Shown here piece by piece: positions 831 to 29,600 of a DNA stretch of 32,000 bases. The DNA comes from Haloquadratum walsbyi C23 (GTDB taxonomy: Archaea; Halobacteriota; Halobacteria; Halobacteriales; Haloferacaceae). The translations under genes and the position numbers were made by a program. The notes beneath the pieces are model-generated. The model was not told where the DNA came from. It did no database searches and was given only the letters and a program-made list of their open reading frames with translations. The stretch is taken from the NCBI RefSeq assembly GCF_000237865.1, contig NC_017457.1, forward strand, positions 68,259 through 100,258, in the 5' to 3' direction. Numbering within the stretch: the first letter of the stretch is position 1; the number at the start of each line of letters is the position of its first letter.

Positions 831-831
831 T

Positions 832-1104
832 ATGGGTAGTGTCATATCTAAAGGCTGGGTCAATCATCTCACTATGAAGTGTTGGGAATGGACTGTAGTA
901 GAGCGGGTAAGTCGGACAGTCAGGATGGAAGAGATCCGCGAAAACGACTACAATCTGAATATCGATTTATACGTCGATACGACCAAACCAGAGGAAGATA
1001 TTGACGTACAGGAGGAACTGGCGGAACTACGCGAGTTGCAGGCAGAACGAGACGAGATTGAAGCGAAGATGACCCAGCATATGGAGGCTCTGAATTATGA
1101 GTGA
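832..1104 (+). pseudogene. hsdM: 3' remnant of Type I methyltransferase subunit hsdM (only about the last 70 codons are HsdM-like)
   Basis: The ORF tail VERVSRTVRMEEIRENDYNLNIDLYVDTTKPEEDIDVQEELAELRELQAERDEIEAKM matches the canonical extreme C-terminus of HsdM (..EEI..NDYNLNI.RYV..). No AdoMet-binding or NPPF/Y motif is present. Its stop overlaps the next hsdS start (ATGAGTGA at 1097-1104), as at a genuine hsdM-hsdS junction. Confidence 0.7.
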
Positions 1105-6132: not shown

Positions 6133-6681
6133 AACTGCAAGTTGCTCTATTTCCGCCGTTATATCCTTGATAGACGACGAGATCTGGTTGAGGTCAGTAA
6201 GCCCAGTGCAGACAACCTTCCCGCTGGCGAAAATCAGGAGGACAGCATCTTGACCACGGTAAATTAGAGCAGGAAATTGCTCGGGTTCGTACTCGGCTTG
6301 CTCCAGTCCGAGTCCGATAGCAATTGCTTCTAACGACAGAGTCGAATCAACTTCTGCTGTTGCGACGATGTTCTTGATTTCGGCAGTAGGTTCGTATTCA
6401 AAGTTCAGTAACTCACGCATCAGCGTATTCACCCGCCTGACCACCTCCTCGAAATGTGCTGGTGATGTCGCTCCCACAATCGAGCATTTGCCACTTCGGT
6501 AAAACGGCACGTAGGTGTCATCGGGGGCAAAGCGAGCTTGCAACCAGTGGTTTTCAGATGGTTCGTAGGTGACAGAATTGACTTCGGATCGTTGTTCAAA
6601 GGTCTCAGCCAACGCCGATAACTCAAGCTCCTGCTGGTAGGTCAACATCCCAACGACGTTCGCAATCTCAAACTCTGCCAC
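6127..6681 (-). CDS. tbp: TATA-box-binding protein paralogue (divergent N-terminal repeat)
   Basis: 184 aa with two TBP repeats. The second is near-canonical (IKNIVATAEVDSTLSLEAIAIGLGLEQAEYEPEQFPALIYR...LLIFASGKVVCTG). The first is divergent (IANVVGMLTYQQELELSALAE...FYRSGKCSIVGA). Its 3' end overlaps the DUF45 gene convergently by 6 nt. Confidence 0.85.
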   Translation of the reverse strand: MAEFEIANVVGMLTYQQELELSALAETFEQRSEVNSVTYEPSENHWLQARFAPDDTYVPFYRSGKCSIVGATSPAHFEEVVRRVNTLMRELLNFEYEPTAEIKNIVATAEVDSTLSLEAIAIGLGLEQAEYEPEQFPALIYRGQDAVLLIFASGKVVCTGLTDLNQISSSIKDITAEIEQLAVS

Positions 6682-6864: not shown

Positions 6865-7941
6865 TCAAATATCATCATTTTCTCTGATAGAGATTTCGAC
6901 ACCACAGGCTTCTGCCATCCGCCCCAGTTCACGTTGTTTCTGATCCCAGCTTAAGTTGACTTCAAGATAGTATTCCTGTTCTAGTTCACGTGCTTGCTTC
7001 ATCTCCTTGTCGTTGTATGTTGGTTCGTCATTGACGATAGCACGATTCTTCGCAGGGATGTATGGGAGTGGCTCAATCGCAGAGATAAGGTCGTGATTTT
7101 GGATGAGGTAGTTCACTATCGACGCCATCAGGTCGCTCTGGACAGAATCTGTAAAGGTCTCAGCGACATCACCACTCTGAGAGATTTCGCCAGAATATGG
7201 CTGTGTTATCCTGTCCTCAGAGTCAGTTGATGAATCTTCATTATCCAATCGACGTGGAGTGTCCGTATCAATCTCGGACTCGATATCGTTGACGAGCCTG
7301 TCAATCATCTCTTTCGCTTGCGTTTGTGCTTCCGATTCGATAGCGTCAGAAACGGTGTCAGTGAGCAAATCCACAACCGCTGTGGCTAATTCTTCTTTGT
7401 CATCTGTCAGCGTATCCCGAGATTTTCGTAACTTCCTGATGTGTTCGATAATCGCTATTGATTCTTCATTGTGTATCGTGCTAACTTGATACGCCTCAAT
7501 GATACCCTTCTTGTCTGGAAGTTTCCGAAGTGTCGTCCGTTCAACCGCCTCGACTTTGAATTGTGAATCACTGTCACCGAGATATCGGTAGTAGAACTCA
7601 TACTCCTGTCCGTTGGTGAGAATACCCAATCTGACATTCTCACTCTGGAGATATGCACTCAGTTGCTCTCGATGCTTGGAGGTGAGCGTTTTACCCAGTC
7701 CCTTTGCTTCGAGAAATGCCACGGGTTGTCCGCCGAGTATAAGAGCATAATCGACTTTGAATGTTTTACTGAATGCCTTCACCGAGTACTCTAGTTCGGT
7801 GTTAGCTGGGATCTCCCAGCCAAGAAGTTCGATGAAATCGTTTAGTATAGACGCTTTCGTAGTTGCTTCCTGCATCTGCGGTGAATCCTCGATGATGGGT
7901 TGAGCAGACTCAACGTAGTCCCGAATCGATGCTGTGTCCAT
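6865..7941 (-). CDS. HsdR_N-like PD-(D/E)xK nuclease-fold domain protein with an acidic linker and an unknown C-terminal domain
   Basis: The N-terminal half carries the D...E-x-K...Q..Y...TNG signature (VDYALILGGQPVAFLEAKGLGK...REQLSAYL...LGILTNGQEYEFYY). ATG at 7941 (MDTASIRDY) is preferred over the longer track start at 8013. Confidence 0.7.
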   Translation of the reverse strand: MDTASIRDYVESAQPIIEDSPQMQEATTKASILNDFIELLGWEIPANTELEYSVKAFSKTFKVDYALILGGQPVAFLEAKGLGKTLTSKHREQLSAYLQSENVRLGILTNGQEYEFYYRYLGDSDSQFKVEAVERTTLRKLPDKKGIIEAYQVSTIHNEESIAIIEHIRKLRKSRDTLTDDKEELATAVVDLLTDTVSDAIESEAQTQAKEMIDRLVNDIESEIDTDTPRRLDNEDSSTDSEDRITQPYSGEISQSGDVAETFTDSVQSDLMASIVNYLIQNHDLISAIEPLPYIPAKNRAIVNDEPTYNDKEMKQARELEQEYYLEVNLSWDQKQRELGRMAEACGVEISIRENDDI

Positions 7942-8263
7942 TCTTACAAGTGATCTTCTCTCGTGTGATTCAAAGAAATGTGGGCAAAGACTCAGTAACC
8001 CTCCATTCGTCATTGGTCTCCTTGTCTGTAGTTACTCGTACTGACGCTCTTACTTCGTCTACGTGGGCGGTAGCTCACTCGCAGAACCTGTTTATTTCGC
8101 CCTGAGGTGATGTCAGTTCAGGGCGGAGGACTAGTTACCAATGGGCTTCCACGGTGGTGGTATCACTTCGGTGATTCTTAAAATGATGATAAATATCGTC
8201 GACTCTTCTTGTAGATGAAAAAATCCTAATACAGACAAGAATTATGTATTAAATTTTATTCTA

Positions 8264-15582: not shown

Positions 15583-16115
15583 ATGATCAAGAAAGAATCC
15601 TCAACTCCAAACGGCAAATTATCGCCAGCTGATATCCAACCCAGCACTAACCTCCCCGATGTCGACCTCTCCGGCATTGATCTTGTCAGCACTGACTTCA
15701 CGGATATTAATTTCTACGGTGCTGATCTCTCTGATACCAGTCTCGTGGATGCTAACCTCTCTGCGACCGACCTTTCAAACGCCAGCTTCGATGGTGCCGA
15801 CCTCTCAGACGTTGACCTTTCAGGTGCCGAACTCTCCGGCGTGAATCTCACGAGTGCAGATCTTACCGAGGCTGACCTCACTGACGCCAACCTTAGAGAA
15901 GCCGAACTCACCGCCGCTGACCTCACGCATATCACTCTTACACGTGCCAATCTCTCCTATGCCAAACTCGATAGAGCCAATCTCCGATACGCCTCTCATG
16001 GGCTCAGGTAAATAGTGCTGATATCACGGACGCCTGTCTCATTGAAGCCGATTTCTGCCACGCTGACCTCTCTTACACCGATCTTGGAAGAACCGATGTT
16101 CGGAGCACAAAATGA
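15583..16115 (+). pseudogene. Pentapeptide-repeat protein, interrupted by a frameshift near 15990-16008
   Basis: The 142-aa ORF is almost entirely A(D/N)LXX repeats (ADLSDTSLVDANLSATDLSNASFDGADLSDVDLSGAELSGVNL...) and stops at 16011. The repeat pattern continues in the -1 frame (..LSWAQVNSADITDACLIEADFCHADLSYTDLGRTDV) to the TGA at 16113-16115. Confidence 0.7.
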
Positions 16116-16633: not shown

Positions 16634-17839
16634 TTAGTCTGCGTGTTGACCGATTATTTGTCCCACTCGACTTTCGGATTCAAGCACGTCGGCGATGATA
16701 TCCTCATCAGCATTGAATTCGTATTTATAATAGCTCCCACCGTTCGATCCTTTATTCACCTCCATCAGATTGATGAATCCCTTCAGCGATAGCTGATTCA
16801 GACGCCGGTGTAATGTCCGTGTCGATACGGTATCACGTCCGATCTGCTGTGCGATTGTCTTGTACTGGTCGTGGATCACTTTTCGTCTGACTGGTGTTCG
16901 TCCTTGTCGTGCCAGCGACAGTACTGTGTAGAGCACGACGTGACTTTGTGTTGGTAACGCTTCGAGTTCGTCTTTAACGACGCCACTCTGGACTTGGTGG
17001 TATGCCTTTGTGACATGAGAGTCTGTAATCGTCGAATCATTGTTGTCTCGTGCGATGAAACCCGCATTCGAGAGGATATTGATCGCTTCACGAGCGCTTC
17101 CGGTGCGCTGTGCGACTTTTGCAGCTGTCAATGGGATTACTTCTTCGGACAGTGCGCCGTCCAAGAACGCTTCATCAGCACGTTGTGAGAGGATTTCCTG
17201 TAACTGATCAGCATCATACGGCTTGAAGTGGATCTCGTGTTCACACAGCGTTGATTGGACACGGGCTGACAGTTCATCACGGAACTTGAAATTATTCGAA
17301 ATGCCGATCAGTCCGATTTTTGTCTCGGTAATGTTCCCGTTCGTATGTGCACGTGGGATTTGATACAACAGTTCATCATCAGATCTGAAACTATCAATTT
17401 CATCAAGCACGAACAGGACATGTGTGGCGTCGGTATCCTCAATATGTTCCCACAGTTTTCGATGTACTGTGGAACGGGGATAGCCTGTCGTGTGAATCTC
17501 CTGATTTCGGTCACGAAAATGATTCACGAGGTGACACGCAACTTGATAACTCGTTGCATCTTTACAGTTCTGCCAGACAACCTCGACGGAGACGTTGTCG
17601 AATTCAACCTGGTCCTCGAGCAACTCATCAAGTATCATTTCTGTTGCGAGTGTTTTCCCAACGCCGGTATCACCGTAGACGAAGATGTTTCGGGGACTGG
17701 CTCCATTAGCCACGCTCTGAAGCACTTCCACGTATGTAGACATCTCATCTTCTCGAGCAATGAGTGTGTCAGGCGTATATCCATCAGTAAGGACCTCCTC
17801 GTTATCGAACACGGCGTCAGTCTGTGTGAACCGTCCCAT
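16634..17839 (-). CDS. orc1: Orc1/Cdc6 replication initiator (AAA+ plus C-terminal winged helix)
   Basis: 401 aa. Walker A VYGDTGVGKT (17651-17674). Walker B FVLDEID. Sensor region GLIGISNN. C-terminal wHTH (LSLARQGRTPVRRKVIHDQYKTIAQQIGRDTVSTRTLHRRLNQLSLKGFI). Confidence 0.95.
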   Translation of the reverse strand: MGRFTQTDAVFDNEEVLTDGYTPDTLIAREDEMSTYVEVLQSVANGASPRNIFVYGDTGVGKTLATEMILDELLEDQVEFDNVSVEVVWQNCKDATSYQVACHLVNHFRDRNQEIHTTGYPRSTVHRKLWEHIEDTDATHVLFVLDEIDSFRSDDELLYQIPRAHTNGNITETKIGLIGISNNFKFRDELSARVQSTLCEHEIHFKPYDADQLQEILSQRADEAFLDGALSEEVIPLTAAKVAQRTGSAREAINILSNAGFIARDNNDSTITDSHVTKAYHQVQSGVVKDELEALPTQSHVVLYTVLSLARQGRTPVRRKVIHDQYKTIAQQIGRDTVSTRTLHRRLNQLSLKGFINLMEVNKGSNGGSYYKYEFNADEDIIADVLESESRVGQIIGQHAD

Positions 17840-17860: not shown

Positions 17861-17870
17861 CTATAAATAA
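17861..17870 (-). promoter_or_regulatory. Putative TATA box for orc1 (minus strand ttatttatag), consistent with a leaderless transcript
   Basis: An AT-rich TATA-like element is centred about 26 nt upstream of the orc1 ATG (17839). Its position fits archaeal TATA spacing. There is no experimental support. Confidence 0.4.
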
Positions 17871-17895
17871 CCACTGTGTGAACTGTGTCAAGTGA

Positions 17896-17953
17896 GTCAA
17901 GTGTGTCAAGTGAGTCGTTGATTTATATAACACACACACACCGTTTTTCACGG
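17896..17953. repeat. Left arm of a 58-nt origin-type inverted repeat (gtcaagtg units, tttatata, (ca)n, ccgtttttcacgg)
   Basis: By hand alignment, 52 of 58 positions match the reverse complement of 18241-18298. An additional gtcaagtga unit lies at 17887-17895. Confidence 0.85.
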
Positions 17954-18107
17954 ACGTATGTCTTGAGAGAGTGGGTGGCTGTTGGGACGCCGTGATCGGA
18001 GCCGTATCCGTGCATGTGTGGGAGGCAGTGGTTGTAGGGGTTGGCGGGAAGGAGGCGTGTTCACGACACGCCTCATGTTGTTTGTTCGCTCAATTTACTC
18101 AGTACGG

Positions 18108-18190
18108 TTATTATTGTATTTATTATTATATAAAGTTTTTGTCATATATATTTTACATAATTATATCAATATGTTATTGAGATGATAATA
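18108..18190. other. Extremely AT-rich block, candidate duplex-unwinding element of a replication origin
   Basis: Line 18121-18180 contains only 7 G+C out of 60 by hand count. The block sits between the two inverted-repeat arms next to orc1. Confidence 0.6.
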
Positions 18191-18240
18191 CCACCACTGA
18201 CAGCGACTAACATCTGACCCCACTGTTTCAGCGAGAGTCT

Positions 18241-18298
18241 CACTGAGAAACGGTGTGTGTGTGGTATATAAATGAACCACTCACTTGACACACTTGAC
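18241..18298. repeat. Right arm of the 58-nt origin-type inverted repeat (cactgagaaacgg-(tg)n-tatataaa-...cacttgac)
   Basis: It is the reverse complement of 17896-17953 with 6 mismatches. The cactgagaaacgg segment loosely resembles the archaeal ORB core (..CAGTGGAAAC..). Confidence 0.85.
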
Positions 18299-18404
18299 AG
18301 AATAAGATACGAATGACACACGTGACAAAATGTGTCTATAGCTAGTCATGATGTAACGTGATTTTCTCCGTATGCAACTTGATACCACCGTGTAAATCGG
18401 ACAC

Positions 18405-18608
18405 TCAGTGAAGTTGAGCAGTCATCTGTTGAATTCCGTAATACAAAACTGGACCCAATACAGCACTGAGAATAACTGTTCCAACGAGAGGGAGAATTCC
18501 TGTCGGATCGGGACTGAGTGCAATCAAGATGCTGAATCCACTAACCACGGCAATAAAAATAGATATGCCTACAAGCGCAGTCTGTGCCATATCGGAGCGT
18601 ACACTCAT
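18405..18608 (-). CDS. Small hypothetical two-TM membrane protein (67 aa)
   Basis: ATG at 18608 (MSVRSDMAQTALVGISIFIAVVSGFSILIAL..LPLVGTVILSAVLGPVLYY). No homology evidence. Confidence 0.4.
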   Translation of the reverse strand: MSVRSDMAQTALVGISIFIAVVSGFSILIALSPDPTGILPLVGTVILSAVLGPVLYYGIQQMTAQLH

Positions 18609-18986
18609 ATCCCTAATAAAACGGCATTTTCTATTTTCCCGCTGAGAAACTAATACCAATCGAACAATATCGTGTTTGTCACAGATGTCCCACAGTCTCA
18701 GAGTCGCTCAGAACACATTTCAGTATAGTAATACACATCATATTGCAAGAAATATTAGCATGCATACGCATCAGTATAGTTCGGGGAAAATGTAATTTAG
18801 ACTATTTAATACGGTGCTGTTTTTACTTCACTTTAGAAATAAAATCGCTCAGAGCTGTAATATGTATATATCTCATCACTACAGAAGCCTGGGCTGAGTA
18901 GCCCGTCAGTAAGTGGGATCAGGAGACTCCTGTGCAAGGCACAAGTATCTACAGATTCCATACAATGATATCATAGCCTCCAACGA

Positions 18987-21860
18987 ATGAGTTCACAAAC
19001 ATCTCCAAGTATCCAGCCAGGTGCCGTAGTCAAGAATCGAAACCGACTATGGAGAGTTGATTCCGTTGATGGAGACGTTGTCACAGCGACTCCCATAGAC
19101 GGGAGCACTGCCGACAAGCATCGGTTTTATATTCCGGTCGAGGATATCAGAGAGGGCAGTCTGAATCCGCCAGATTCTGAGAAACTCGGGAATCCTGAGT
19201 TTCAGCGGCTACTAAATCGGTCATATCGGCTTTCGATGCTACACGGGACAGCTCCACTCGTAAGCCTCCAACGGTCACGGGTTATCCCAACCGAGTACCA
19301 GCTTACTCCAGTTGTAATGTCTTTGGATATGCCCCGTGTCCGAATGCTGCTGGCTGACGACGTCGGTCTAGGGAAAACCATTGAAGCAGGCCTCATCACC
19401 AGCGAACTGATGGCCCGCAACAAAGCGGATCGTATTCTCATAATTACGCCTGCGAATCTCCGAGACCAGTGGCGTGAAGCGTTTACCTACTTCTTCCACA
19501 TTGATGCGGATATTATCAGCCGCCGCCATCGAAAGGCGATGGAAAAGGAAATCCCACCAGGAACTAGTCCGTGGGAGCATTTTTCGAAACTCATTGTCAG
19601 TATCGACTACGCCAAACAAAATAGCGTTCGACACGAGATTCTGGATCAAGAGTGGGATCTCGTCATTATTGATGAGGCACACCAAGCGGCGAAACCGCAT
19701 GAATCCGGGGCAAACGAAACCGTCGATATGCAACGCTGGGACTTTGCGACCGATATCACCGACCACGCTGAACACTGTCTCCTCCTGACGGCTACGCCCC
19801 ACAACGGCTACACGGATTCGTTTGCGAGCTTGATTCGGATGCTTGACGTCGACGCAGTATCTGGTCCTCGACATGACCCTACCGTTCACCGAGATATCGC
19901 CCGAAAGCATGTTGTCCAACGACGGCGGGACGATGTCAAGCGATGGTTCTCTGACAGCGACGGTCAAAGTCCCTTCCCAAAGCGAGATCAAGACGAAGTA
20001 CGGGTTACGCCGACAGCATACGAGGAAGAGACATACGATGCCGTCCGAGAGTATGGAGAGCTGTTGATGTCCTCCGCACAACGGTCAAGCTCCAAGAGCC
20101 AGACGCTGGCTCGTTGGTCAGTCATCCACTTCCTGAAGCGAGCATTAAGTAGCCCCGAAGCGCTCCGCCGATCGATAAAAAACCGTCAGGAAAAGCTCGA
20201 AGGTCGGCTGGATGAACTTGACGAGGAGGATACCCAGACTGTAATCGAAGAGACAGCAGGAGTCTCCGAGTCGATGGCTCAGGCGAATGCACTTGACGAC
20301 GATCCTGGTGAAGAGTACAGTGAAGAGGAGGTCGGAGAACGGGTCGAGCGGGTCGTCACGGGTGATAAAGCCGCTATCGAACAGGAACTGGAGGTTCTCG
20401 AAGATGTTGCAGAAAAGGCGGAGCGGGTCACCAAAACCCGTGATGCAAAGTTACAGCGGCTTCTCGACGAAACTCTACCCCAGCGGTTCCAATACCCTCG
20501 TGTCATCATATTTACAAAGTACGTGGATACGCTGGAGTATCTCGAAGAGCAGATCAAGGATTCGCAGGGTGATGAGACCGAAGTCTTCACTCTCCACGGG
20601 TCTCTAAATGAGGCACAACGGAAGGAGCGGTTCAAAGAGTTTGAAGAATCTACACGGGGCGTTCTCATCGCCACTGACGTCATCAGCGAAGGGATGAACC
20701 TCCAACACGCCGCAAACCAAATTATTCACTACGAGCTGCCGTGGAACCCGAACAGATTGGAACAGCGGAACGGTCGAATCGACCGATATGGGCAGGAGAA
20801 CGACGAGGTCGTCATCCGGACGATGGTCGTCGAGGATCAGATGGACGTGGCTATTCTCGAAAAACTCGTCCAGAAAGCGAACAACATCAGGCAGGAGTAC
20901 GGGTTCTCACCACCGTACTTCGGCGACGACGAAGGGATCCTCGAACTGCTCAAAGACGAGGGAATCGACGCTGGCGTTCCACAGGCAACACTAGAAGAGT
21001 TCGGCGGCTCCGCACCAGCGGAGCGTGAGAGTGCGAGTGTCTTTGACGACCAGACACTTGACCGAATTAAATCCGAATCGTTCTACGGGCATACTGAAGT
21101 CGGCCTACAGGAGGTTCAAAAGCGTCAAGAAGAGACCCACCAGCGAATCGGCGGGCAGGGCACGTTAGAGCAGTTCGTCAAGAGTGGTCTGAACCTGTTC
21201 AATTGCTCGTACGAGATGAACGTCCAAGGGCACCTCAACATCGAGGTTACTGCTGATCGACTTCAATCACCGGACATCAAACGTGAGTACGAGGACGTGA
21301 CGTTCGATCCCAACGAGGCGTCCCAGTCATCGGATGCGGAGATGCTTGACATCGCCCATCCGCTCGTACAACGGCTCATCGAAGCCGTCAAAGAGACAGC
21401 GTTGACCGATGAGAACCGCTACGGGCGGACAGCAATACGGGGAACCGATGAGGTGAGGGAGCCGACAGCAGTGTATACAGCACTGGTTCGATACGTGGCA
21501 GACACCCAGCCCGATCCGACGATTATGGAGGAGTTGGTACAGGTCGGGTTGCCAATCTACGGGGACAAGCCACTTGAGCAAGATACCGTTGAGGCTTTAG
21601 AGGAGAGTGAAGCCAAACCGGTTCAGCGCACATCGATGGAGAAGGAAGACGAACTCAGAGCGGCACTCGGACACGGAGCGTTCGAACAGACGCTACAACG
21701 GCGAGCAGAACAGCGGCGGGACAAGATTGTCGAACAGCGGACCGAGATGCGAGCGGAGCTTGAGAAATCCGGAAGTGGAAGCTGGCTGTCCGGGATTGAT
21801 GACGTCGAGATTGCGAGCAAAGATCTGCTGACTGTCACCATCTATTATGGGAGCAACTAA
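18987..21860 (+). CDS. SNF2/RapA-family helicase (DrmD-like)
   Basis: 957 aa. Motif I LADDVGLGKT (19356-19379). Motif II IIDEAHQ (DEAH at 19671-19682). Motif III LLLTATPHNG. C-terminal lobe FTLHGSL..., ATDVISEGMNLQ, and motif VI WNPNRLEQRNGRIDRYGQ. Small N-terminal beta-rich domain (GAVVKNRNRLWRVDSVDGDVVTATPIDG). Confidence 0.92.
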   Translation: MSSQTSPSIQPGAVVKNRNRLWRVDSVDGDVVTATPIDGSTADKHRFYIPVEDIREGSLNPPDSEKLGNPEFQRLLNRSYRLSMLHGTAPLVSLQRSRVIPTEYQLTPVVMSLDMPRVRMLLADDVGLGKTIEAGLITSELMARNKADRILIITPANLRDQWREAFTYFFHIDADIISRRHRKAMEKEIPPGTSPWEHFSKLIVSIDYAKQNSVRHEILDQEWDLVIIDEAHQAAKPHESGANETVDMQRWDFATDITDHAEHCLLLTATPHNGYTDSFASLIRMLDVDAVSGPRHDPTVHRDIARKHVVQRRRDDVKRWFSDSDGQSPFPKRDQDEVRVTPTAYEEETYDAVREYGELLMSSAQRSSSKSQTLARWSVIHFLKRALSSPEALRRSIKNRQEKLEGRLDELDEEDTQTVIEETAGVSESMAQANALDDDPGEEYSEEEVGERVERVVTGDKAAIEQELEVLEDVAEKAERVTKTRDAKLQRLLDETLPQRFQYPRVIIFTKYVDTLEYLEEQIKDSQGDETEVFTLHGSLNEAQRKERFKEFEESTRGVLIATDVISEGMNLQHAANQIIHYELPWNPNRLEQRNGRIDRYGQENDEVVIRTMVVEDQMDVAILEKLVQKANNIRQEYGFSPPYFGDDEGILELLKDEGIDAGVPQATLEEFGGSAPAERESASVFDDQTLDRIKSESFYGHTEVGLQEVQKRQEETHQRIGGQGTLEQFVKSGLNLFNCSYEMNVQGHLNIEVTADRLQSPDIKREYEDVTFDPNEASQSSDAEMLDIAHPLVQRLIEAVKETALTDENRYGRTAIRGTDEVREPTAVYTALVRYVADTQPDPTIMEELVQVGLPIYGDKPLEQDTVEALEESEAKPVQRTSMEKEDELRAALGHGAFEQTLQRRAEQRRDKIVEQRTEMRAELEKSGSGSWLSGIDDVEIASKDLLTVTIYYGSN

Positions 21861-21862
21861 CG

Positions 21863-24800
21863 ATGAGTATCGATACACCCTCTACCGACGCTGAAATCGA
21901 ATCGAGTTCCGATACGCCACGAACCGGATCAACGACATTCATTAATACGAGCGGCGGTCTCCTCACCGAGGAACTGGTTGGCAAAGTCCGTCAACGTCAG
22001 TGCGGAGAGTCTGCCGTCCGACCGGAGACCTTTGCGTTACCGAACACGGAGCCGCCCGAAGAGGCGGACATCGAAGCAGAGATCGGGAATACGTGGAACA
22101 CGCTTCGGGAGCGATGGGACGAGCTGACTATGGACGAGACACTATTCCATATGGACGTCTCGGACGCTCGCAACAAGTGGATTCTCAAGCTATTCCGAAA
22201 CCTTGGCTTCGAGCCGGTCTTCCAGCGTGAGAATCTCGAAGCGGGCGGCATCGAGGCGAACCTCTCTCATAAGGGATGGCCGGACGGCGAGATCGAAAAC
22301 TATGGTGAACTGGAGGGGCGGACGGCTCCAATCATTCATACCGTTAAGCCGGAACAGAAGCTGGATCAAAAACCCGAAAATGCTCCTCGTGGAAGAAAAA
22401 GTCCACATGACACGCTCCAGGAGTTCCTAAATGCCAGCGACGAACATGACTGGGCTGTCGTAACAAACGGGCTGACGCTCCGAGTTCTTCGGGATTTCTA
22501 TCACACGTACACCCGTGGATACGTGGAGTTCGATCTGGAGAATATATTTACGACCCGGAATTACGGGGACTTCCGGGGACTCTACCGGCTCTGCCACGCT
22601 ACACGGTTCATCGATCCGATCGTAGCCGATGAAGAGGAGGATGATATTGAGACTCCTCTGGAGCAGCTCTACCAGGTCGCTCTGTCTACTGGGGTCAAGG
22701 TTGGTCAAGATCTCCAATCCAACGTCGTAAGCGCCATCGAGACGCTGGGGACCGGGCTACTCAACCAGGAGATTCGGGAGTTCCTCAAAGAAGGTGGAGA
22801 AGAGGAAGCCAAAGAGTACTATCAGGAGGTCCTTCTCTTGGTATATCGCCTGCTTTTCCTGATGTATGCAGAGCAGCGGGGGATGATGGCGTCACGTGAT
22901 AGCCTGTACACCAACGAGTATAGCATCACGAACCTCCGTAGAAAAGCCGAAAACCGTCGAAGCGGGAGTGACCGAAATACTGATCTTTGGCACGGCTTAC
23001 AGTCCACGTTCCGTCTCGTCGAGAAGGGTGACGACGAACTCGGCGTCCCTTGTTACAATGGAATGCTCTTCGACTCGAACCGGTTTGAATGGGTGTCCGA
23101 AGCCGAGTGTTTCAACGATGATCTCTTGGATGCAATTGAGGATCTCACCCTCATTGAGCACGAGGGCACTCGCCAACGAATCTCGTACGCCGACCTCGGT
23201 GTTGAGGAGATTGGGTCTGTCTACGAGAGTCTGCTCGAGTTTACACCGAGGCTTGCATCTGAAGTAATTGAATTGGAAGACAGAACGATTACTCGTGGTA
23301 AGTTCTATCTCGACGACCGGGGGACCGAGCGAAAAGAGACCGGGAGCTACTATACTGATCCGGGATTAGTTCAAGAACTTATTCAGAGCTCGCTGGAACC
23401 CGTCGTTGAAGATCGTATGGAAAACGCTGTCACGACTCCGGAACAGGAAGAAGCCCTCCTCGACATCTCTGTCTGCGATCCAGCAAGCGGAAGTGGTGCG
23501 TTCCTGATCGCCGCCAACAATTTCTTAGCACAGCGACTCGCTCGCATTCGATCTGACAGTGACTATCCGCCTGGAGACAAGATTCGTGAGGCACGCAGAG
23601 ATGTCCTCCAGCACTGTATCTATGCAGTCGACCTCAATCCAATGGCCGTCGAATTGGCAAAGGTCAGTCTCTGGATAAACTCTGCTGTAGAAGACAAGCC
23701 GCTAAACTTTCTTGATCACCGTATCAAACAAGGAAATTCGCTTGTTGGGACAAATAGAGATCTAATTAATCGAGGCGTTCCTGCTGATGCCTATGAGACA
23801 TCGAAGGGTCGTGACTGGCACATTGGCAATGAAATAAGGAAACGTGTCCGTCAAGAAAATAGCGAACTGAATGATAATAACCAACAGATTCGGCTTGATA
23901 CTCAGTGGGATGACCGTCAGGAAGATTATGTAAGTCTTGCAGAACAGTTGGATCAATTAGAGGAATCTGAGGTCAAGAATATAAATAAGAAACAAAAAAT
24001 CTACAATGATCTCCGTGAGAGTGAAAATTTCCAGCGGGAGAAACTTGCCCATGACGTATGGACGGCAGCATTTTATTGGCCGCTCGATGGTTCTGCAGAA
24101 GAATATCCAACGCCGAATATAATCGAACAGATTCGTCGAAATCCGCCGACACCATCCAACAGTTCTCTTTCTGAACTAACTGGGTTACAGGCTGTGCGTG
24201 AACGTGCAACTCAACTCGCAGAGAAGGAGTCGTTCTTCCATTGGAAGCTCGAATTTCCAGAGGTATATGCAGCTGGTGGATTTGATTGTATCATCGGCAA
24301 CCCTCCCTGGGAGATCGTAGAATTTGAAGAAAGAGAATTCTTTGCCGTCCAGGCACCTCATATCGCAGATGCAAGCACTCAGAGCGAGAGGAGAGAACTC
24401 ATTTCAGAATTGGAAAAAACGGATCCGGAGCTCTATTCTGAGTACCAGTCTGCAGTGAACCGTATGGAAAGTCGTGTCCGGTTCCTGAAAGAGAGTGGGC
24501 GATACGAACTTACAGGGACTGGCCATGTCAATACATACTCAACTTTTACTGAACACGCTTTATCGAACATCAACAACTATGGACGGTGTGGAATCATCGT
24601 CCCACAGGGTATTGCAACAGATTCAAACACTCAAGAATTCTTCCAGCATATCGTAGAAAAGCGTCGGCTTATCTCCCTCTTAGGCTTCGAAAACCGAAGT
24701 CAATTATTCCCAGATGTAGACGGCCGGTTTAATTTTTGTCTACTGACTCTGAGCGGTCGAAAAGAGACGCAAGAAAAGTTTGAGCTTGCATTTTATTTGA

Positions 24801-25915
24801 CCGAAATTGATCAATTACAAGACGAACAACGTCGGTTCAATTTGTCCAAACGAGACATCAAAACGATTAATCCTAACACAAAGACTTGCCCAACATTCCA
24901 AAACAGAGAAGATGCCAATCTTACCCTCAATATCCACAGAAGAACAGATATATTAAAAAAAGAAGCGGATGGATCCGGAAATCAGTGGGATATTTCGTTA
25001 GAGAGGATGTTCCACATGTCAAATGACTCTGGACTTTTTGAAACCTCCTCTACTCTTCAACAAGACGGTTTTGAATTGTCTGGGAATATTTTCGTTAAAG
25101 ATGATTTGAAGTATTTGCCGGTGTATGAGGCAAAATATATTCATCAGCATGATCACAGATTTGCCACTTATGAGGGGATAGAAAACGCTCCAGATGAAAA
25201 ACCACGAAAGCTATCGCCGGAAAAAAAAGATGTGGAAAATAAGCGAGTTATCCCTCGTTATTGGATAAAAGAAGACGAATACAAATCTCAAGAATACGAA
25301 GATTGGCATCTCTTGCTGAGAGCTATTACAAACGCCACAAATGAACGAACAGTAATTGCTTCACTTGCCCCTTCAACACCAACTGTCAACAGCGTCAACC
25401 ATGTCTTGGGAGTTTCCGCACCGGATGGACTAATTCTATCTTCATGCTTGAATTCTTATGTTCTGGACTTTGTTGCCCGTCAGAAAGTTGGAGGTACTAA
25501 CCTGAGCCAGTTCATAATAAAGCAACTACCAGTACCTACACCAGAGAAAGCCAATCAAATACAACTAGATAATAACCCAATACGGAAGGCAATCTTAGAA
25601 CGTGCGGAAAAGCTAATATACACAGGATCTGATCTTTCTTCTATCGGATCTGAGCTAAATAACGACTCTGATCCTTACCAATTTACTGAGCCAGATGGGA
25701 AGAAGCGAGAAGAGGTCAGGTATGAATTAGAAGCGTTAATTTGCCATCTCTATGGGATTCATTCGGAGGAATTCAAACCTCTATTTGACTCTTTTAAGCA
25801 GATCAAACAACGTGATCAGCAAAAGTATGGCTACTATCGCACCCGTGATGAAATTAAACGCAGATTTGATGACTTAGCACCCAGAATCACGTATGAATCA
25901 AAGTCGGAACAATAG
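21863..25915 (+). CDS. Large gamma-class N6-adenine DNA methyltransferase (Eco57I/Type IIG-like, DrmMI/PglX-like architecture)
   Basis: 1350 aa. The ATG is 2 nt after the SNF2 stop. AdoMet motif I VCDPASGSGAFL (23477-23506). Catalytic motif IV IIGNPPWE (NPPW at 24299-24310). N-terminal HsdR_N-like fold (..APIIHTVKPEQ..HDWAVVTNGLTLRVLRD). The long C-terminal half is presumably a target-recognition region. Confidence 0.92.
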   Translation: MSIDTPSTDAEIESSSDTPRTGSTTFINTSGGLLTEELVGKVRQRQCGESAVRPETFALPNTEPPEEADIEAEIGNTWNTLRERWDELTMDETLFHMDVSDARNKWILKLFRNLGFEPVFQRENLEAGGIEANLSHKGWPDGEIENYGELEGRTAPIIHTVKPEQKLDQKPENAPRGRKSPHDTLQEFLNASDEHDWAVVTNGLTLRVLRDFYHTYTRGYVEFDLENIFTTRNYGDFRGLYRLCHATRFIDPIVADEEEDDIETPLEQLYQVALSTGVKVGQDLQSNVVSAIETLGTGLLNQEIREFLKEGGEEEAKEYYQEVLLLVYRLLFLMYAEQRGMMASRDSLYTNEYSITNLRRKAENRRSGSDRNTDLWHGLQSTFRLVEKGDDELGVPCYNGMLFDSNRFEWVSEAECFNDDLLDAIEDLTLIEHEGTRQRISYADLGVEEIGSVYESLLEFTPRLASEVIELEDRTITRGKFYLDDRGTERKETGSYYTDPGLVQELIQSSLEPVVEDRMENAVTTPEQEEALLDISVCDPASGSGAFLIAANNFLAQRLARIRSDSDYPPGDKIREARRDVLQHCIYAVDLNPMAVELAKVSLWINSAVEDKPLNFLDHRIKQGNSLVGTNRDLINRGVPADAYETSKGRDWHIGNEIRKRVRQENSELNDNNQQIRLDTQWDDRQEDYVSLAEQLDQLEESEVKNINKKQKIYNDLRESENFQREKLAHDVWTAAFYWPLDGSAEEYPTPNIIEQIRRNPPTPSNSSLSELTGLQAVRERATQLAEKESFFHWKLEFPEVYAAGGFDCIIGNPPWEIVEFEEREFFAVQAPHIADASTQSERRELISELEKTDPELYSEYQSAVNRMESRVRFLKESGRYELTGTGHVNTYSTFTEHALSNINNYGRCGIIVPQGIATDSNTQEFFQHIVEKRRLISLLGFENRSQLFPDVDGRFNFCLLTLSGRKETQEKFELAFYLTEIDQLQDEQRRFNLSKRDIKTINPNTKTCPTFQNREDANLTLNIHRRTDILKKEADGSGNQWDISLERMFHMSNDSGLFETSSTLQQDGFELSGNIFVKDDLKYLPVYEAKYIHQHDHRFATYEGIENAPDEKPRKLSPEKKDVENKRVIPRYWIKEDEYKSQEYEDWHLLLRAITNATNERTVIASLAPSTPTVNSVNHVLGVSAPDGLILSSCLNSYVLDFVARQKVGGTNLSQFIIKQLPVPTPEKANQIQLDNNPIRKAILERAEKLIYTGSDLSSIGSELNNDSDPYQFTEPDGKKREEVRYELEALICHLYGIHSEEFKPLFDSFKQIKQRDQQKYGYYRTRDEIKRRFDDLAPRITYESKSEQ

Positions 25916-25947
25916 GTTCATGTCTGAATTAATTTATTATGCTCGTC

Positions 25948-25954
25948 TTTTTTT
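25948..25954 (+). terminator. T7 tract, a candidate archaeal intrinsic terminator after the methylase gene
   Basis: The ctcgtctttttttcg run of 7 T lies about 33 nt downstream of the stop at 25915. Archaeal termination commonly uses oligo-T tracts. Not tested. Confidence 0.3.
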
Positions 25955-26233
25955 CGTGAACAGAATATGTCAAAATAAATGAGTCAGACTGGTTGGATAA
26001 AAATCCAAATCTGACTGAATACCGGATTAGGTAGGAAAATCACCCCTGGAATAGGGACTCAATTTCGTTGAAAAATTCTGTAAATACGGTTTTGATTATA
26101 TTTGAATCATTTAATCCAGTATGTAGTATTTTTCCGAAGAAAATATAGTAAACGTTCAGAATCAGGGTTCGGAGAGTAATAGAGACAAGGCATAACCTTC
26201 GGATCATAACTGGCTTTCTGGTCATCGAAATAA

Positions 26234-26578
26234 TTATTCAATTGATATACAGTCCCTATCGAACTTATCTAAGTACACCAGACTTCTGAATTCAAATTCA
26301 AAATCGGCAACATTGTCAATAGTAATGAAACTATTTATGCTCTTGATTAACTCGTCATGGGTTAACCAGAGTTCTTGTTCACCGCTCGCTCCAGCGATGT
26401 CGGACTTTCCTGATCCGAAAAGTAACACTGTCGGACTATCTGGAGTGAATTCTAATTTGAACGTATGATGGTATTCTGGTTGATATTGTTGCTCGTGAGC
26501 GTCTAGATCTCCATGTAGTACAGCTAAATCTAACTCCTAATTAATATCGCCCCTACCAACCGGACTAACGAGCTCCAT
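26234..26578 (-). pseudogene. Antisense ORF with an in-frame TAG (codon 14), divergent from the helicase gene; decayed gene of unknown function
   Basis: The ATG at 26578 gives MELVSPVGRGDIN, then a TAG at 26537-26539. The same frame continues ELDLAVLHGDLDAHEQQYQPEYHHTFKLEFTPDSPTVLLFGSGKSD...CISIE, reaching the track ORF 26234..26428. The product is acidic and protein-like, but no domain is recognised. Confidence 0.3.
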
Positions 26579-26644
26579 GTCCTACCTATCATACTCAGTT
26601 CTCTTATGAAAAAACGTTTACAGCTTCCCATTAATAAGCAGAAT

Positions 26645-29600
26645 ATGTCATCTCGTCTCAATCCCTTTGACGCCCTCGATAACGTCCAATCCTCCTATCG
26701 ATCCTACGTCGAGACGTTTCAAAACGTCGACGATGAGACGATCAACGCTTGGATTGAGAACCGCATCGAGACGGGAAAGGTACTGTGGAAAGAACCGTTT
26801 GTTCAATTGAATCAACGCTTCAAGTACGGCGACACCCTGGAAGAGTTCGTTACGGACAATAAGCTCCACGAGAGTATTCTGGATGTATTCACCGGTGTCG
26901 GCGGCGATCCCATTGAGCCGTACAAACATCAGACCGAGGCAATTCAGTCTATCCAAGCAGGAAACAATACCATCGTTTCCACAGGGACAGGATCGGGGAA
27001 GAGCTTCGCCTTTGGGATTCCGATCGTCAGTCACTGTCTCGAAGCTAAAGAGCGAGGCGAGGACGGGATCAAAGCGGTCATTATCTACCCGATGAACGCT
27101 TTGGCGAACTCCCAGTACGAGGACTTCGCAGAGCGACTTGACGGGACAGGTCTCCGGCTGGGACTTTACACGGGTGACACACCGCACAACCCTGACGAGG
27201 CACCAGAGTTCCTCCGGCAGTTCGGTCGTGAAGAGGCGTTTGACTCCGAGATCGTCTCTCGGGAAGAGATGCAGAACGACCCGCCGGACATCCTGATGAC
27301 GAACTACGTCATGCTTGACCTCATCCTTACCCGACATGAAGACAAGAAGCTCTTCCCAGAGATGCACGAGGGAGCCTTACAGCATCTGGTACTAGACGAG
27401 ATCCACACCTACACCGGTCATCAGGGAGCCGACGTCGCCGCACTGGTCCGCCGGCTGAAGCAGCACACCGACGCTGGAAAGGAACTCGTCTGCGTCGGTA
27501 CTTCTGCGACGGTTCAGAGCGATGAGGGGATCAACGCCAACGACGAGATAGCCGAATTCACTGGGAAGATCTTTGGTGAGGAGGTCGACGTCAACAACGT
27601 CGTTCGGGAGTTCCATTACCCATTACCCCTCTCTGACGACGAACCGCTTCCTGACGACATCGAAGTCACCGAAGAGGACATCGCAACCTTCGACGGGAGT
27701 CTCGAAGCCGCACAAGACCTCACCGAGAAACTCCTCGACCGGGATCTGATGCCAGCTGAGACAACCGATGCGTCAGCACTCGGGAATGCGCTGGAGAATC
27801 ACCCAACGATCAAGTTCCTTGATGAAGAGCTTAGCTCCCAGAGCCAGCAGATCTTCGCCGGTGAGGATGACAAAAGCGATGACGGGAAGGATCTCGTCAG
27901 TAGCTATCAGGAACAGTACCGACCCGATGCATCTCGGTACGACATCGAGCAGGAACTACAGGCAGCCCTGCTAATGGGGACGGTTGGGACGACCGAGATA
28001 CAGGGCGAGGAACAGCCGATCTTCATCCCGAAACTCCACACCTTCTTCAGTCAGGGAAGTGGTCTCGTCTCCTGTCTCACCGAGGAGTCCCTCGATGACG
28101 ACGAACCACACCTGAGTGACGCCGGCGACATCGAGTGTCGCACGTGCGCACAAGAACACGACCGTTCTCGGACTGCCTACCCGCTCTCGTTCTGTCGGGG
28201 ATGCGGTCAGGAGTACTACACCACGGTTGTCGATCAAGAGAACACCGTCACACAAGGTGCGTTGAGTACCTTCGTAGACACGGAAGAGGACGAAGAGGAG
28301 GCGTACCTAATGCGGGGCGATTGGGATCGAGAAACGGCTCCACTCCCCGATGAGTGGCTAAATGAGAATGGGCAGCTTCGAGATACCTACATCGAGGCTG
28401 AACCCCGACCGGCTATTTACTGCCCCGATTGCGACCAACTCACTCCTGGACGAGTAGAACAGGGGCAGCTCGAATGTGGATGCTTCGCTGCGCAGGGGCT
28501 TGAGGTGATGCGGGTCAACCAGCCGTTCCTGTTCTGTCCGAACTGTGGCGTCCACTACACTCGCCGGGTCAAGAACGAGTTCAACAAGCTGTTTACCTTC
28601 GGGACTGTCGGCCGCTCGACAGCGACGGACATTCTCATCGGAAACACGATGCGGAACCTCCCCGATGACCAGCAGAAGACCATCGCCTTCTCTGACAACC
28701 GACAGGATACTGCATTGCAGGCGGCTCACCTCAATAACCTCTACCAGCGGATTCGATTCCGACGCTCGCTGTACCATACCCTTGTAGAGGGCGACGATGT
28801 AAGTCTCACGACGCTCGGAAACGATATCTTCGACCTCCTTGATGACAAGGAAGCCCTTCCGCCAGCCATAGATACAGGGATGTTCGGACCGTCGGCTGAG
28901 GATCGTCAGAACTACAGCGACTATCTGCTGTTCAACGTCATTCTCGAACTCGGTCGTGAACAGCAACGCACCCAGCAGAGTCTCAAAGACGTCGGACTGG
29001 TCAATGTCGAGTACGAGAACCTCGATAAGCTGGCGGATGTAGACGATGTTTGGGACTCGATCCCCGTACTTTCGAATGCAGATCCGACGGTGCGAGAGGA
29101 GTATGTTCACGGCTTCTTGGACATCTTCCGCCGGAGCATTGCAATAGACCACGATAGCACCACGAACTTCGCCGACTTCAAGCGAAACGTCATCAACCAG
29201 CTCGACGAAGAGGTTCATTTCCACGGGCAGGAGTTCTTCAATTTCCCAGTCGGGTACAGTGATACGGCAAGCACTAACGGAAGGCACCGGGTTCGCCGAC
29301 TTACACATCCTCGCTCTCGACACGTCCGTTGGACATCCCGTGCGTTAGACGTCGACACCGATACTGCGAAGTCAATTATTAACAGCGTCGTTGAGCTCAT
29401 CAGCGACGACGAAATACTCAAGCTGCTGACGCAGGAGTCGCTGAAGTACACTGGGAAAGTATATATGTTGAATCACAGTGCTGTTCGAGTCACGCATGCC
29501 AATCCCGAGGACGTACGGGTCTGTCCAAAATGTGGAACACCGACGACTCGGAATGAACTTGATGTCTGTCTGAATTACAGCTGTGATTCGATTATACCCG

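Follow-up and report, generated by a model that had tools for sequence, protein, structure and literature searches.

We predict with good confidence that positions 17861-18340 of the window (the whole 32-kb stretch of DNA analysed) constitute an Orc1/Cdc6-dependent, ORB-type replication origin of the Haloquadratum walsbyi C23 plasmid PL100. The identity of the replicon follows from its proteins. The Orc1, TBP, HsdR and SNF2 helicase encoded in the window are 100% identical to CCC41954.1, CCC41945.1, CCC41943.1 and CCC41956.1, respectively, all of which derive from one 100,258-bp record, that of PL100. The replicon is therefore a free plasmid and no integrated element, as the first-pass annotation had thought possible. 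A Pfam scan that took in all ORFs of 100 aa or more, nested ones apart, detected no integrase or recombinase, and no tRNA genes were found. A blastn search of the PLSDB plasmids, a collection that does not include PL100, matched only coding parts of orc1 from other genera.

That an origin lies here is already known as a prediction. PL100 is a published plasmid, and origins named OriP1 and OriP2 were predicted upstream of both of its cdc6 genes (Dyall-Smith et al. 2011, PLoS One 6:e20968, Figure S1). Its authors reported no RepH homologue and only small inflections in a skew analysis; they placed the start of replication most likely near the two cdc6 genes, which lie on roughly opposite sides of the plasmid and each have ORB-like repeats upstream. 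Judging from the order of protein accessions, our locus is most likely OriP1, upstream of Hqrw_5030; neither name was found in the text supplements of that paper. In its main text and text supplements we found no mention of a clade-wide comparison, of a swap between G-string and (GT)6, of an inversion polymorphism or of a conserved hairpin, which are the subjects of the analysis below.

Anatomy of the region upstream of orc1

The orc1/cdc6 gene (16634-17839, minus strand) encodes a protein of 401 aa identical to CCC41954.1/WP_014554940.1 of PL100 and to P0142 at 401 of 401 residues. Its ORF is complete, with the Pfam domains AAA_16/22 (AAA+), Cdc6_lid and Cdc6_C (the C-terminal winged helix), and the Walker A (GDTGVGKT) and Walker B (VLDEID) motifs are visible in the alignment. 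Among solved structures the protein best matched Sulfolobus solfataricus Orc1-1 (2qby_A, E = 6e-55), followed by Aeropyrum pernix ORC1 (2V1U, E = 5e-46), while tblastn against phages gave at most 25.5% identity (BJ1, ChaoS9). This intact gene adjoins the predicted origin; the start of its ORF is 22 nt away from a TATA box, and 57 nt separate it from the left repeat arm. The box (17862-17872, minus strand; TATAAATAACC on the plus strand, TTTATA on the coding strand) lies about 23 nt before the ATG, a spacing that fits a leaderless mRNA, and from general knowledge of haloarchaeal promoters we take it to be the orc1 promoter element. It occurs once in the window and is invariant among the window, the orthologous locus of H. 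walsbyi J07HQW2 and the related locus L003; an equivalent T(A/T)TAAA(T/A)AACC was found in all relatives.

Upstream of this box, our recount bore out two 58-nt arms (17896-17953 and 18241-18298) that the first-pass annotation had described as reverse complements at 52 of 58 positions, 287 nt apart; a repeat search recovered 55 nt that are 93% complementary. Without gaps, the inverted repeat scored at best 43, compared with 11.4 +/- 1.8 (maximum 20) in 200 dinucleotide-preserving shuffles, and the features described in that annotation are far beyond chance. Each arm indeed holds GTCAAGTG(A/T) 9-mers, TTTATATA, a (CA)6/(TG)6 tract and CCGTTT(T/C)TCA. The arm motif AAACGGTGTGTGTGTGKTATATAAAT occurs in the window only twice, as the two arms, and (GT)n tracts of at least four units are found nowhere else in its 32 kb; five of the seven window copies of GTCAAGTG fall at the origin.

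Within the left arm, the proximal ORB (17919-17958, minus strand) reads as the core CGTCCGTGAAAAAC, a GG(TG)5T tract and then TATATAAA, with the core facing the predicted duplex-unwinding element (DUE) and the tract facing orc1. Its distance from the orc1 ATG is 104 nt, compared with 85-122 nt in 15 of 16 related orc1 loci, the exception being Haloferax lucentense with its direct repeats only; the distant pHV1 site lies at 432 nt. The distal ORB (18236-18275, plus strand, in the right arm) is inverted relative to the proximal one and consists of the core GTCTCACTGAGAAAC, a GG(TG)5G tract and again TATATAAA. It is situated 408 nt from the ATG; the first inverted distal ORB of the relatives lies at 274-416 nt, and a second copy, present in some of them, may be as far away as 436 nt.

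Between the orc1 TATA box and the proximal ORB, a family of directly repeated 9-mers, GTCAAGTG(A/T), occupies 17875-17915 on the plus strand at 9-nt spacing, with three exact copies and one degenerate (copies at 17887, 17896 and 17905). Outer 9-mers are also present on the distal side (18279-18331, minus strand), with GTCAAGTG at 18282 and 18291 and the degenerate GTCACGTG at 18319. Every relative has two to six tandem 9-mers at the corresponding place, in numbers that vary among the environmental variants. At seven related loci (L010-L011, L015-L018 and L021) these match the outer half of the ORB core of their own locus, for example TTCACGAGC, the match being weaker in PL100 itself. The 9-mers resemble mini-ORB half sites and probably serve as extra Orc1 sites or in orc1 autoregulation.

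The inverted ORB arms flank the least stable and most AT-rich DNA of the window. An AT block at 18121-18180 had been noted, and its 7/60 G+C (12% GC) was confirmed; the predicted DUE as we delimit it spans 18092-18191, with 17% GC over 100 nt and a core at 18112-18171 of 10% GC. No other 60-mer of the window is as AT-rich as this core (6/60 G+C), the next having 12/60, and the least stable 50-mer (18117-18166) has a dG of -45.2, the mean over the window being -67.6 +/- 4.7. In the upstream regions of the relatives, the 50-mer of lowest stability likewise falls between inverted ORBs in 10 of 13 cases.

The remainder of the space between the arms is rich in G. Our base count of the block reported at 17970-18075 gave G 47, C 20, A 16 and T 23 in 106 nt, or 44% G. 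The G-rich spacer (17959-18051, plus strand), recognized by its composition, is conserved in sequence only in close relatives and not in J07HQW2. It contains an inner G-box, AGTGGGTGG (17970-17978, plus strand), read directly from the sequence 30 nt inside the proximal ORB; its inverted partner, the C-box CCCACT (18219-18224, plus strand), lies 30 nt inside the distal ORB, each box thus being offset by 30 from the CCGTTT of its arm. Comparable G-rich boxes occur just inside the proximal ORB at four related loci (L022, L009, L010 and L016). By analogy only, the G-box may be likened to the G-rich inverted repeat that enhances oriC1 of Haloarcula hispanica.

A perfect 9-bp hairpin at 18052-18074, GAGGCGTGT-TCACG-ACACGCCTC with a 5-nt loop, was present as described, and together with a T-rich tail, ATGTTGTTTGTTCG, it extends over 18052-18088 on the plus strand. 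Its folding energy is -10.8 to -12.2 kcal/mol (z -2.2 to -4.0), and it scores as terminator-like on the plus strand. Among the window, J07HQW2 and L003 it is invariant except for one compensated pair, the top pair, which is T-A in PL100 and C-G elsewhere, while its flanks diverge. It was found only in this Haloquadratum subclade. A scan of metagenomes with the hairpin motif returned only the orthologous J07HQW2 locus, as Lake Tyrrell contig L002. To judge from its conservation, the hairpin with its T-rich tail is under selection. A permissive Rfam scan of 16.0-19.5 kb found nothing in the origin and one chance miRNA match inside the helicase gene. Small ORFs inside the origin (17971-18180, and one from the ATG after the hairpin) were rejected as coding; they are not conserved in J07HQW2, and their frames, compared by eye, differ among the window, L003 and J07HQW2.

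Conservation in the Orc1 clade and the GT tract

The same layout of TATA box, tandem 9-mers, proximal ORB, AT-rich element and inverted distal ORB precedes about 15 related orc1 genes. This blueprint is shared upstream of homologues with 42-99% identity in J07HQW2, in metagenomes and on haloarchaeal plasmids of Haloarcula, Natronococcus, Halomicrobium, Haladaptatus, Halalkalicoccus, Halarchaeum and Natrinema, and the Orc1 and origin recur together in at least 22 environmental contigs. We compared the ORBs of 16 related orc1 loci, or 41 ORB instances in 17 loci when the distant pHV1 comparator is included. A consensus core with its tract is common to the 16, and its position and polarity, with the core toward the DUE and the tract outward, are the same in all but H. 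lucentense (L012), whose six ORB copies are direct repeats. The environmental variants and J07HQW2 alike retain the tract, TATA-like box, DUE and hairpin. The reading of the first-pass annotation, an orc1-linked origin of the ORB type, thus finds its match in the related loci and in a proven precedent with GT-tract ORBs, Haloferax volcanii ori-pHV1/4, and as a prediction it is well supported.

The PL100 cores themselves are less regular. They fit the clade-specific consensus, [AG]C[AT]C..G[CA]AA.. followed by GG, in degenerate form, with TCACGG and TCAGTG where relatives have the less degenerate GCAAGTG or TCACGAG; it is exactly at the ORB cores that the two PL100 arms differ from each other. 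With the mini-ORB consensus (..CCAGTGGAAAC..) the PL100 core has only ..TGA(G/A)AAAC in common; set by eye against the euryarchaeal consensus GTTCCAGTGGAAAC-AAA----GGGGG, it agrees only loosely, at about 7 of 14 positions.

The GT tract had been said to sit where haloarchaeal ORBs usually have a G-string, and indeed the J07HQW2 orthologue carries GGGGGGAGGGGGG at that place in both arms, with G-strings at the corresponding position also in the relatives L017 and L018. The first-pass annotation went astray in calling the repeat atypical, since no form of tract is commoner behind the ORB core in this Orc1 clade than the GT-rich one, which ori-pHV1/4 has as well. The strict criterion for haloarchaeal origins asks for a G-string (Wu et al. 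2012), and in both PL100 arms GG(TG)5 replaces the G run. What this contradicts is the wording of that criterion rather than an origin mechanism. Replacement of the G-string by runs of A or T abolished ARS activity in Har. hispanica oriC1 (Wu et al. 2014, NAR 42:2282).

In the Orc1 tree the two types, G-string and GT-tract, are intermixed. Tract type showed no correlation with Orc1 residues, either in the winged-helix region or in the region aligned at residues 80-140 of the window protein, which we take to be the initiator-specific motif. The loop at this presumed motif is nearly identical in PL100 and J07HQW2 (TTGYPRS versus TSGYPRG). Within one Orc1 clade, then, the G-string is naturally interchangeable with (GT)n, with no evident change in the presumed DNA-contacting loop. 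It is possible, and we put this forward only tentatively, that Orc1 may read the tract as a G/T-rich element (GGKGKG...) or as a structural feature rather than as a G run. Such a reading is compatible with the occurrence of G6AG6 or (TG)6 in both arms at 77% initiator identity, with the interspersed tract types in the tree, and with the presence of both core orientations in different lineages. If it is true, PL100 and J07HQW2 offer a natural swap pair for the role of the 'essential' halophile G-string; candidates for that role would be DNA shape or, for example, a non-B conformation that alternating purine-pyrimidine DNA adopts depending on salt. The conserved hairpin would then count as one more cis element of the origin, hitherto undescribed. 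Origin finders that demand a G-string will miss the GT-tract class.

Inversion of the core and alternative readings

In all eight environmental relatives with enough sequence, the core of about 300 bp between the ORBs is inverted with respect to PL100. These eight contigs all have the one orientation, PL100 and J07HQW2 the other. Both this inversion and the concerted evolution of the two arms are accounted for by occasional homologous recombination between the 55-nt arms. The two arms evolve in concert, the unwinding core exists in both orientations in different lineages, and these natural variants are ready-made for archaeal replication research by ARS assays and footprinting.

An inverted segment bounded by repeats might suggest that the arms are recombination sites and that flipping of the 300 bp between them switches a promoter or terminator for neighbouring genes, the more so as the segment holds an oriented terminator-like hairpin and TATA-like boxes. 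The orientation, however, is fixed in each lineage rather than mixed, the orc1 promoter lies outside the invertible segment, and no recombinase or integrase was identified by Pfam in the window ORFs scanned. Distant relatives, moreover, keep the order ORB-DUE-ORB with short arms, flipping not being evident there, and homologous recombination between the arms already accounts for the inversion. We consider such a switch very improbable. The arms, which measure about 55 nt and enclose a short core rich in AT, also recall the terminal inverted repeats of a foldback or MITE-like element, that is, a 400-bp non-autonomous transposon inserted by chance beside orc1, and Haloquadratum genomes are rich in MITEs (Dyall-Smith et al. 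2011). Yet the unit is present in a single copy (two arms) in the window, scans of viral contigs with the ORB arm and with the hairpin gave zero matches each, and the hairpin motif search of metagenomes led to the orthologous locus only. No target-site duplication or duplicated flanks are visible, the position relative to orc1 corresponds in relatives whose arms have diverged, and the tandem 9-mers track the ORB core of their own locus in plasmid and metagenome relatives. A chance insertion is hardly credible on these grounds.

A dormant or vestigial origin deserves more attention. Here the locus would be a real relic combined with a promoter and autoregulation region for orc1, acting as a regulator or back-up, while PL100 fires from its other cdc6-linked origin. 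Redundancy is possible, given that PL100 has a second cdc6-linked candidate origin with ORB-like repeats; two of seven structurally typical predicted origins of Har. hispanica were inactive in ARS assays, the PL100 ORB cores are degenerate relative to the clade consensus, and the GC skew profile of the window has no inflection at the locus. Against this reading stand the 93% identity maintained between the arms, the conservation of the tract, TATA-like box, DUE and hairpin in the environmental variants and J07HQW2, and an Orc1 gene that is intact and widespread. The identity of the arms together with these conserved elements speaks for continuing selection that goes beyond a promoter, and we regard dormancy as rather unlikely.

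Proposed mechanism and comparison with known origins

If the predicted PL100 origin is active in vivo, the adjacent Orc1 would bind both inverted ORBs. On the model of the Orc1-ORB crystal structures, the winged-helix domain of the protein would contact the core (..GTGAAAAAC / ..CTGAGAAAC), and the initiator-specific motif of its AAA+ domain would contact the flanking GG(TG)5 tract, which stands in place of the haloarchaeal G-string. Two oppositely oriented Orc1 complexes would then bracket the 100-nt unwinding element of 17% GC, where MCM would be loaded for bidirectional replication. The tandem 9-mers, with the proximal ORB on one side and the orc1 TATA box on the other, would probably act as auxiliary Orc1 half sites and probably also couple occupancy of the origin to autoregulation of a leaderless orc1 transcript.

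In the Orc1-ORB structures as cited in Wu et al. 2014, the winged-helix domain sits on the core, and the G-rich flank is occupied by the AAA+ domain. The structures at hand, S. solfataricus Orc1-1 with its oriC1 ORB (2QBY) and A. pernix ORC1 with its ORB (2V1U), are crenarchaeal and come without a halophile-type extended tract. Har. hispanica oriC1 (Wu et al. 2014) has an inverted repeat, rich in G, directly inside its ORBs and depends on a co-located cdc6; its ORBs, however, end in true essential G-strings, and it belongs to the conserved chromosomal oriC1/Cdc6A family rather than to the plasmid-associated clade of PL100. Structure-based predictions of origins in Har. hispanica proved ARS-active in five of seven cases, with two of seven dormant.

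The J07HQW2 cassette (NZ_KE356561.1, about 3.415 Mb), whose Orc1 is 77% identical to that of PL100, has in common with it the TATA box, the 9-mers, the hairpin and tail, TATATAAA in the DUE and the orientation. ORB spacing is 286 nt there and 287-293 nt in PL100. In both arms, G-strings (GGGGGGAGGGGGG / GGGGGGAGGGGG) take the place of the (TG)6 of PL100, and the locus lies on a 3.59-Mb scaffold in another gene context, with an IS605-type TnpB and HNH/HhH proteins.

Ori-pHV1/4 of Hfx. volcanii is the proven precedent: it has ARS activity, is in use in shuttle vectors, and was described as having 'long GT-stretches' after the ORBs that surround its DUE (Norais et al. 2007, PLoS Genet 3:e77). As in PL100, two inverted ORBs carry a (GT)6 tract right after ...CGG (CCACTCGACATAC followed by GG(TG)5T, and CCACTCGACACGC followed by GG(TG)5T) and flank an AT-rich region, with the core toward the DUE and the tract outward; an array of mini-ORBs likewise separates the origin from an adjacent orc gene on a plasmid. 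The two systems nevertheless differ in several respects. The Orc of ori-pHV1/4 is only 29% identical to PL100 Orc1, its core reads CACTCGACA as opposed to C(A/G)(C/T)TGA(G/A)AAAC, and it has about 13 mini-ORBs compared with four in PL100. It is devoid of the hairpin and of the TATA-like box beside the tract, both of which PL100 possesses. Finally, whereas the activity of ori-pHV1/4 has been proven experimentally, the PL100 origin is predicted from its sequence.

Replicon identity and anatomy of the locus

The complete Orc1/Cdc6 protein that Pfam recognizes at 16634-17839(-) is identical to CCC41954.1 at 401/401 residues, and among solved structures it comes nearest to S. solfataricus Orc1-1 (2qby_A, E = 6e-55). 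By exact look-up, the TBP, HsdR and SNF2 helicase encoded in the window are CCC41945.1, CCC41943.1 and CCC41956.1 of strain C23. All four proteins sit on a single record of 100,258 bp, which is the published size of PL100 (Dyall-Smith et al. 2011, PLoS One 6:e20968). The window is thus part of PL100, a free, low-copy and dispensable plasmid, and the first-pass annotation erred in proposing an integrated replicon. No tRNA gene was found, nor any integrase by Pfam among the ORFs scanned. Because PL100 is without RepH, the genome paper placed its replication start most likely near the two cdc6 genes, upstream of which it described ORB-like repeats, and an origin at this locus is already known as a prediction of that paper. 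Since protein accessions increase with the window coordinate and more genes follow this Orc1, the locus is probably the one named OriP1, and its Orc1 is probably Hqrw_5030.

All elements initially described upstream of orc1 were recovered in place. The arms at 17896-17953 and 18241-18298 are reverse complements at 52/58 positions with a spacing of 287 nt; a repeat search delimits the inverted repeat to 55 nt at 93%. The best ungapped inverted-repeat score between 17.5 and 18.7 kb is 43, as compared with 11.4 +/- 1.8 (maximum 20) in 200 dinucleotide-preserving shuffles. Within the 32-kb window, (GT)n tracts of at least four units are confined to the locus, which also holds 5/7 copies of GTCAAGTG, and the 26-nt arm motif has an expected number of chance matches of 0. 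The G-rich block at 17970-18075 contains 47 G vs 20 C, and the hairpin at 18052-18074 has a perfect stem of 9 bp and a loop of 5 nt. The AT block (G+C 7/60 at 18121-18180) supplies both the most AT-rich 60-mer of the window (G+C 6/60; runner-up 12/60) and its least stable 50-mer (dG -45.2 vs a mean of -67.6 +/- 4.7).

The core of the distal origin recognition box (ORB; 18236-18275(+)), CTGAGAAAC, recurs exactly and in unchanged orientation at 18642-18650 and 19177-19185 (+), 399 and 934 nt farther right and without a GT tract, making three copies in all of the 32 kb vs ~0.24 expected. The copy at 18642-18650 is kept in L003, a metagenome-assembled relative. These extra copies may be vestigial distal ORBs, mini-ORBs, or chance occurrences.

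ORBs in related orc1 loci

Metagenomes, together with plasmids of Haloarcula, Natronococcus, Halomicrobium, Haloferax, Haladaptatus, Halalkalicoccus, Halarchaeum and Natrinema, supplied upstream regions of orc1 homologues at 42-99% identity, and 41 ORB instances from 17 loci were anchored for comparison. They share the core [AG]C[AT]C..G[CA]AA.., and the tract after it always begins GG(T/G)G(T/G). Beyond this start most loci run on in (GT)n; three, J07HQW2, Halarchaeum and Natrinema, have a G-string instead, and the remainder read GGGGTC.... Counted from the orc1 ATG, the proximal ORB is at 85-122 nt and the first inverted distal ORB at 274-416 nt, a second distal copy being common. Cores face the centre and tracts point outward; Hfx. 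lucentense is the exception, with six copies all in direct orientation. The least stable upstream 50-mer falls between the ORBs in 10/13 relatives, and the G-string types are scattered among the GT types when the initiators are placed in a neighbour-joining tree; both results fit the origin reading.

J07HQW2, with an Orc1 77% identical, was the sole relative among GTDB species representatives. The region upstream of its orc1 has the architecture and spacing of PL100. A TATAAATAACC box beside the ATG is followed by tandem 9-mers and an ORB arm; next come the tailed hairpin, which reads GGAGGCGTG(C)TCACG(G)CACGCCTCATGTTGTTTGTT, and an AT block including TATATAAA, and 286 nt separate the first arm from its inverted partner. 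The single striking difference is that its arms carry GGGGGGAGGGGGG and GGGGGGAGGGGG in place of the (TG)6 of PL100, so the earlier remark that a GT tract occupies the G-string position holds literally. An Orc1 loop that we take to be the initiator-specific motif, its alignment position being assumed, reads TTGYP in PL100 and in 2/3 of the G-string relatives and TSGYP in J07HQW2; with a loop this nearly identical across tract types, tract type shows no visible coupling to the protein. The J07HQW2 cassette lies in another gene context within a 3.59-Mb scaffold, where its downstream neighbour encodes an IS605-type TnpB and the genes upstream encode HNH-repeat and helix-hairpin-helix proteins (L001 5867-7159; L001 1550-2711), and thus appears mobile between replicons.

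The tandem 9-mers correspond to the outer half of the ORB core of their own locus in the plasmid and metagenome relatives L010-L011, L015-L018 and L021 (for example TTCACGAGC); the match is close in J07HQW2 (TCAAGTGT vs GCAAGTGT) and weaker in PL100. They sit between the proximal ORB (17919-17958(-) in PL100) and the TATA box, which is about 26 nt from the ATG. Likeness and placement together suggest that the 9-mers are additional predicted Orc1 half sites and that a leaderless orc1 mRNA would be autoregulated. While the (CA)6 length is constant, the 9-mer number varies. Near-identical environmental variants (L023-L032) differ in it at 17875-17915, which places the end of the proximal ORB at 110 or 128 nt from the ATG; the unit number is higher still in L029. 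That contigs L005, L007, L008 and L027-L030 stop within the 9-mers or the arm suggests assembly breakage at these repeats.

Inverted core, conserved hairpin and neighbouring genes

The ~300-bp core at 17947-18247, comprising the G-rich block, the hairpin and the unwinding element, is flipped relative to PL100 in 8/8 informative environmental contigs, namely those that encode a 99% identical Orc1 and extend far enough upstream (L003, L004, L023-L026, L031, L032). The core of L003 matches PL100 at 252/319 positions when reverse-complemented vs 174/376 in the same orientation; outside the arms, all eight are collinear with PL100. J07HQW2 has the PL100 orientation. Orientation is uniform within each lineage, which speaks for rare homologous recombination of one arm with the other and against a switch. 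Such recombination would also explain why the arms evolve in concert, both being (TG)6 in PL100 and both G-string in J07HQW2.

A single stem pair excepted, PL100 (18052-18088), L003 (1003-1040) and J07HQW2 (L001 3760-3800) agree throughout the hairpin and its T-rich tail, while the inter-ORB sequence around them diverges. The sole stem change is compensated (T-A in PL100 only, C-G elsewhere), and five other environmental contigs share one T-to-C change in the tail. The hairpin looks terminator-like on one strand, whose reading direction leads away from the nearer TATA-like arm. It was found in this Haloquadratum subclade only, and more distant relatives lack it.

Directly beside the predicted origin lies a large defence-type cluster (18987-31951 (+)) that resembles class 1 DISARM. 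It begins with a DrmD-like SNF2 helicase (18987-21860 (+), E = 1.5e-133) whose 90%-identity cluster has 67 members, proteins of several other haloarchaeal genera among them. The other two proteins are a DrmMI-like or type IIG N6-adenine methyltransferase (21863-25915 (+)) and a helicase of 1781 aa (26606-31951 (+)) that is similar to DruE and DrmA and contains a DUF1998/MZB domain. At 171-6132 (+) is a segment of type I restriction-modification character, in which HsdR (2445-5417) is preceded by two genes for HsdS-like specificity proteins (171-830 and 1097-2452) and followed by a YgjP-like metallopeptidase (5401-6132); the window showed no HsdM gene. A protein with an HSDR_N/MmeI_N domain is encoded at 6865-8013(-), and the plasmid-borne TATA-binding protein gene (CCC41945.1) at 6127-6681(-), about 10 kb from the origin; in the Halarchaeum relative, a TFB gene adjoins orc1. 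A small ORF pointing toward the origin (18405-18590(-); 61 aa from ATG, two predicted hydrophobic helices) is kept in L003, L023 and L024, with substitutions favouring the third codon position (11/8/19), and is probably CCC41955 by accession order. The pentapeptide-repeat gene downstream of orc1 (15583-16011 (+)) recurs there in L003 (3031-3504), the sole synteny kept on that side.

Predicted origin function and known systems

Judging from the protein families, Orc1 would bind each ORB with its winged-helix domain on the core and its AAA+ domain on the flanking tract. The AAA+ contact is the role given to G-strings in structural work cited for Har. hispanica oriC1 in Wu et al. (2014, NAR 42:2282). 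Two inverted Orc1 complexes would then bracket the 17% GC unwinding element at 18092-18191, where MCM would be loaded. In Har. hispanica, 5/7 predicted origins of such type are active. Our comparison backs the proposal of an orc1-linked origin, and we consider the locus quite likely, on sequence grounds, to be a functional Orc1-dependent origin. That it is instead dormant or redundant seems improbable, even with a second candidate origin on PL100 and with ORB cores that are somewhat degenerate within the 17-locus comparison. Somewhat speculatively, how haloarchaeal ORB flanks are read might be learnt from the natural exchange of G-string and (GT)n, from the flipped core and from the hairpin.

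In PL100, a G-box AGTGGG (17970) is mirrored by a C-box CCCACT (18219), each exactly 30 nt inside its ORB, a pair that recalls the G-rich inverted repeat enhancing Har. hispanica oriC1. The Haloferax volcanii plasmid origin ori-pHV1/4, proven by ARS assay (Norais et al. 2007, PLoS Genet 3:e77) although its Orc has just 29% identity to that of PL100, carries the ORBs CCACTCGACATAC|GGTGTGTGTGTGT and CCACTCGACACGC|GGTGTGTGTGTGT (from NC_013968) on either side of an AT-rich region, and an array of CACTCGACAC mini-ORBs extends toward the orc gene. Norais et al. had remarked on long GT-stretches that follow the ORBs on both sides of its unwinding element. Given this precedent, calling the PL100 repeat atypical was an overstatement: it is an ordinary member of a known ORB variety.
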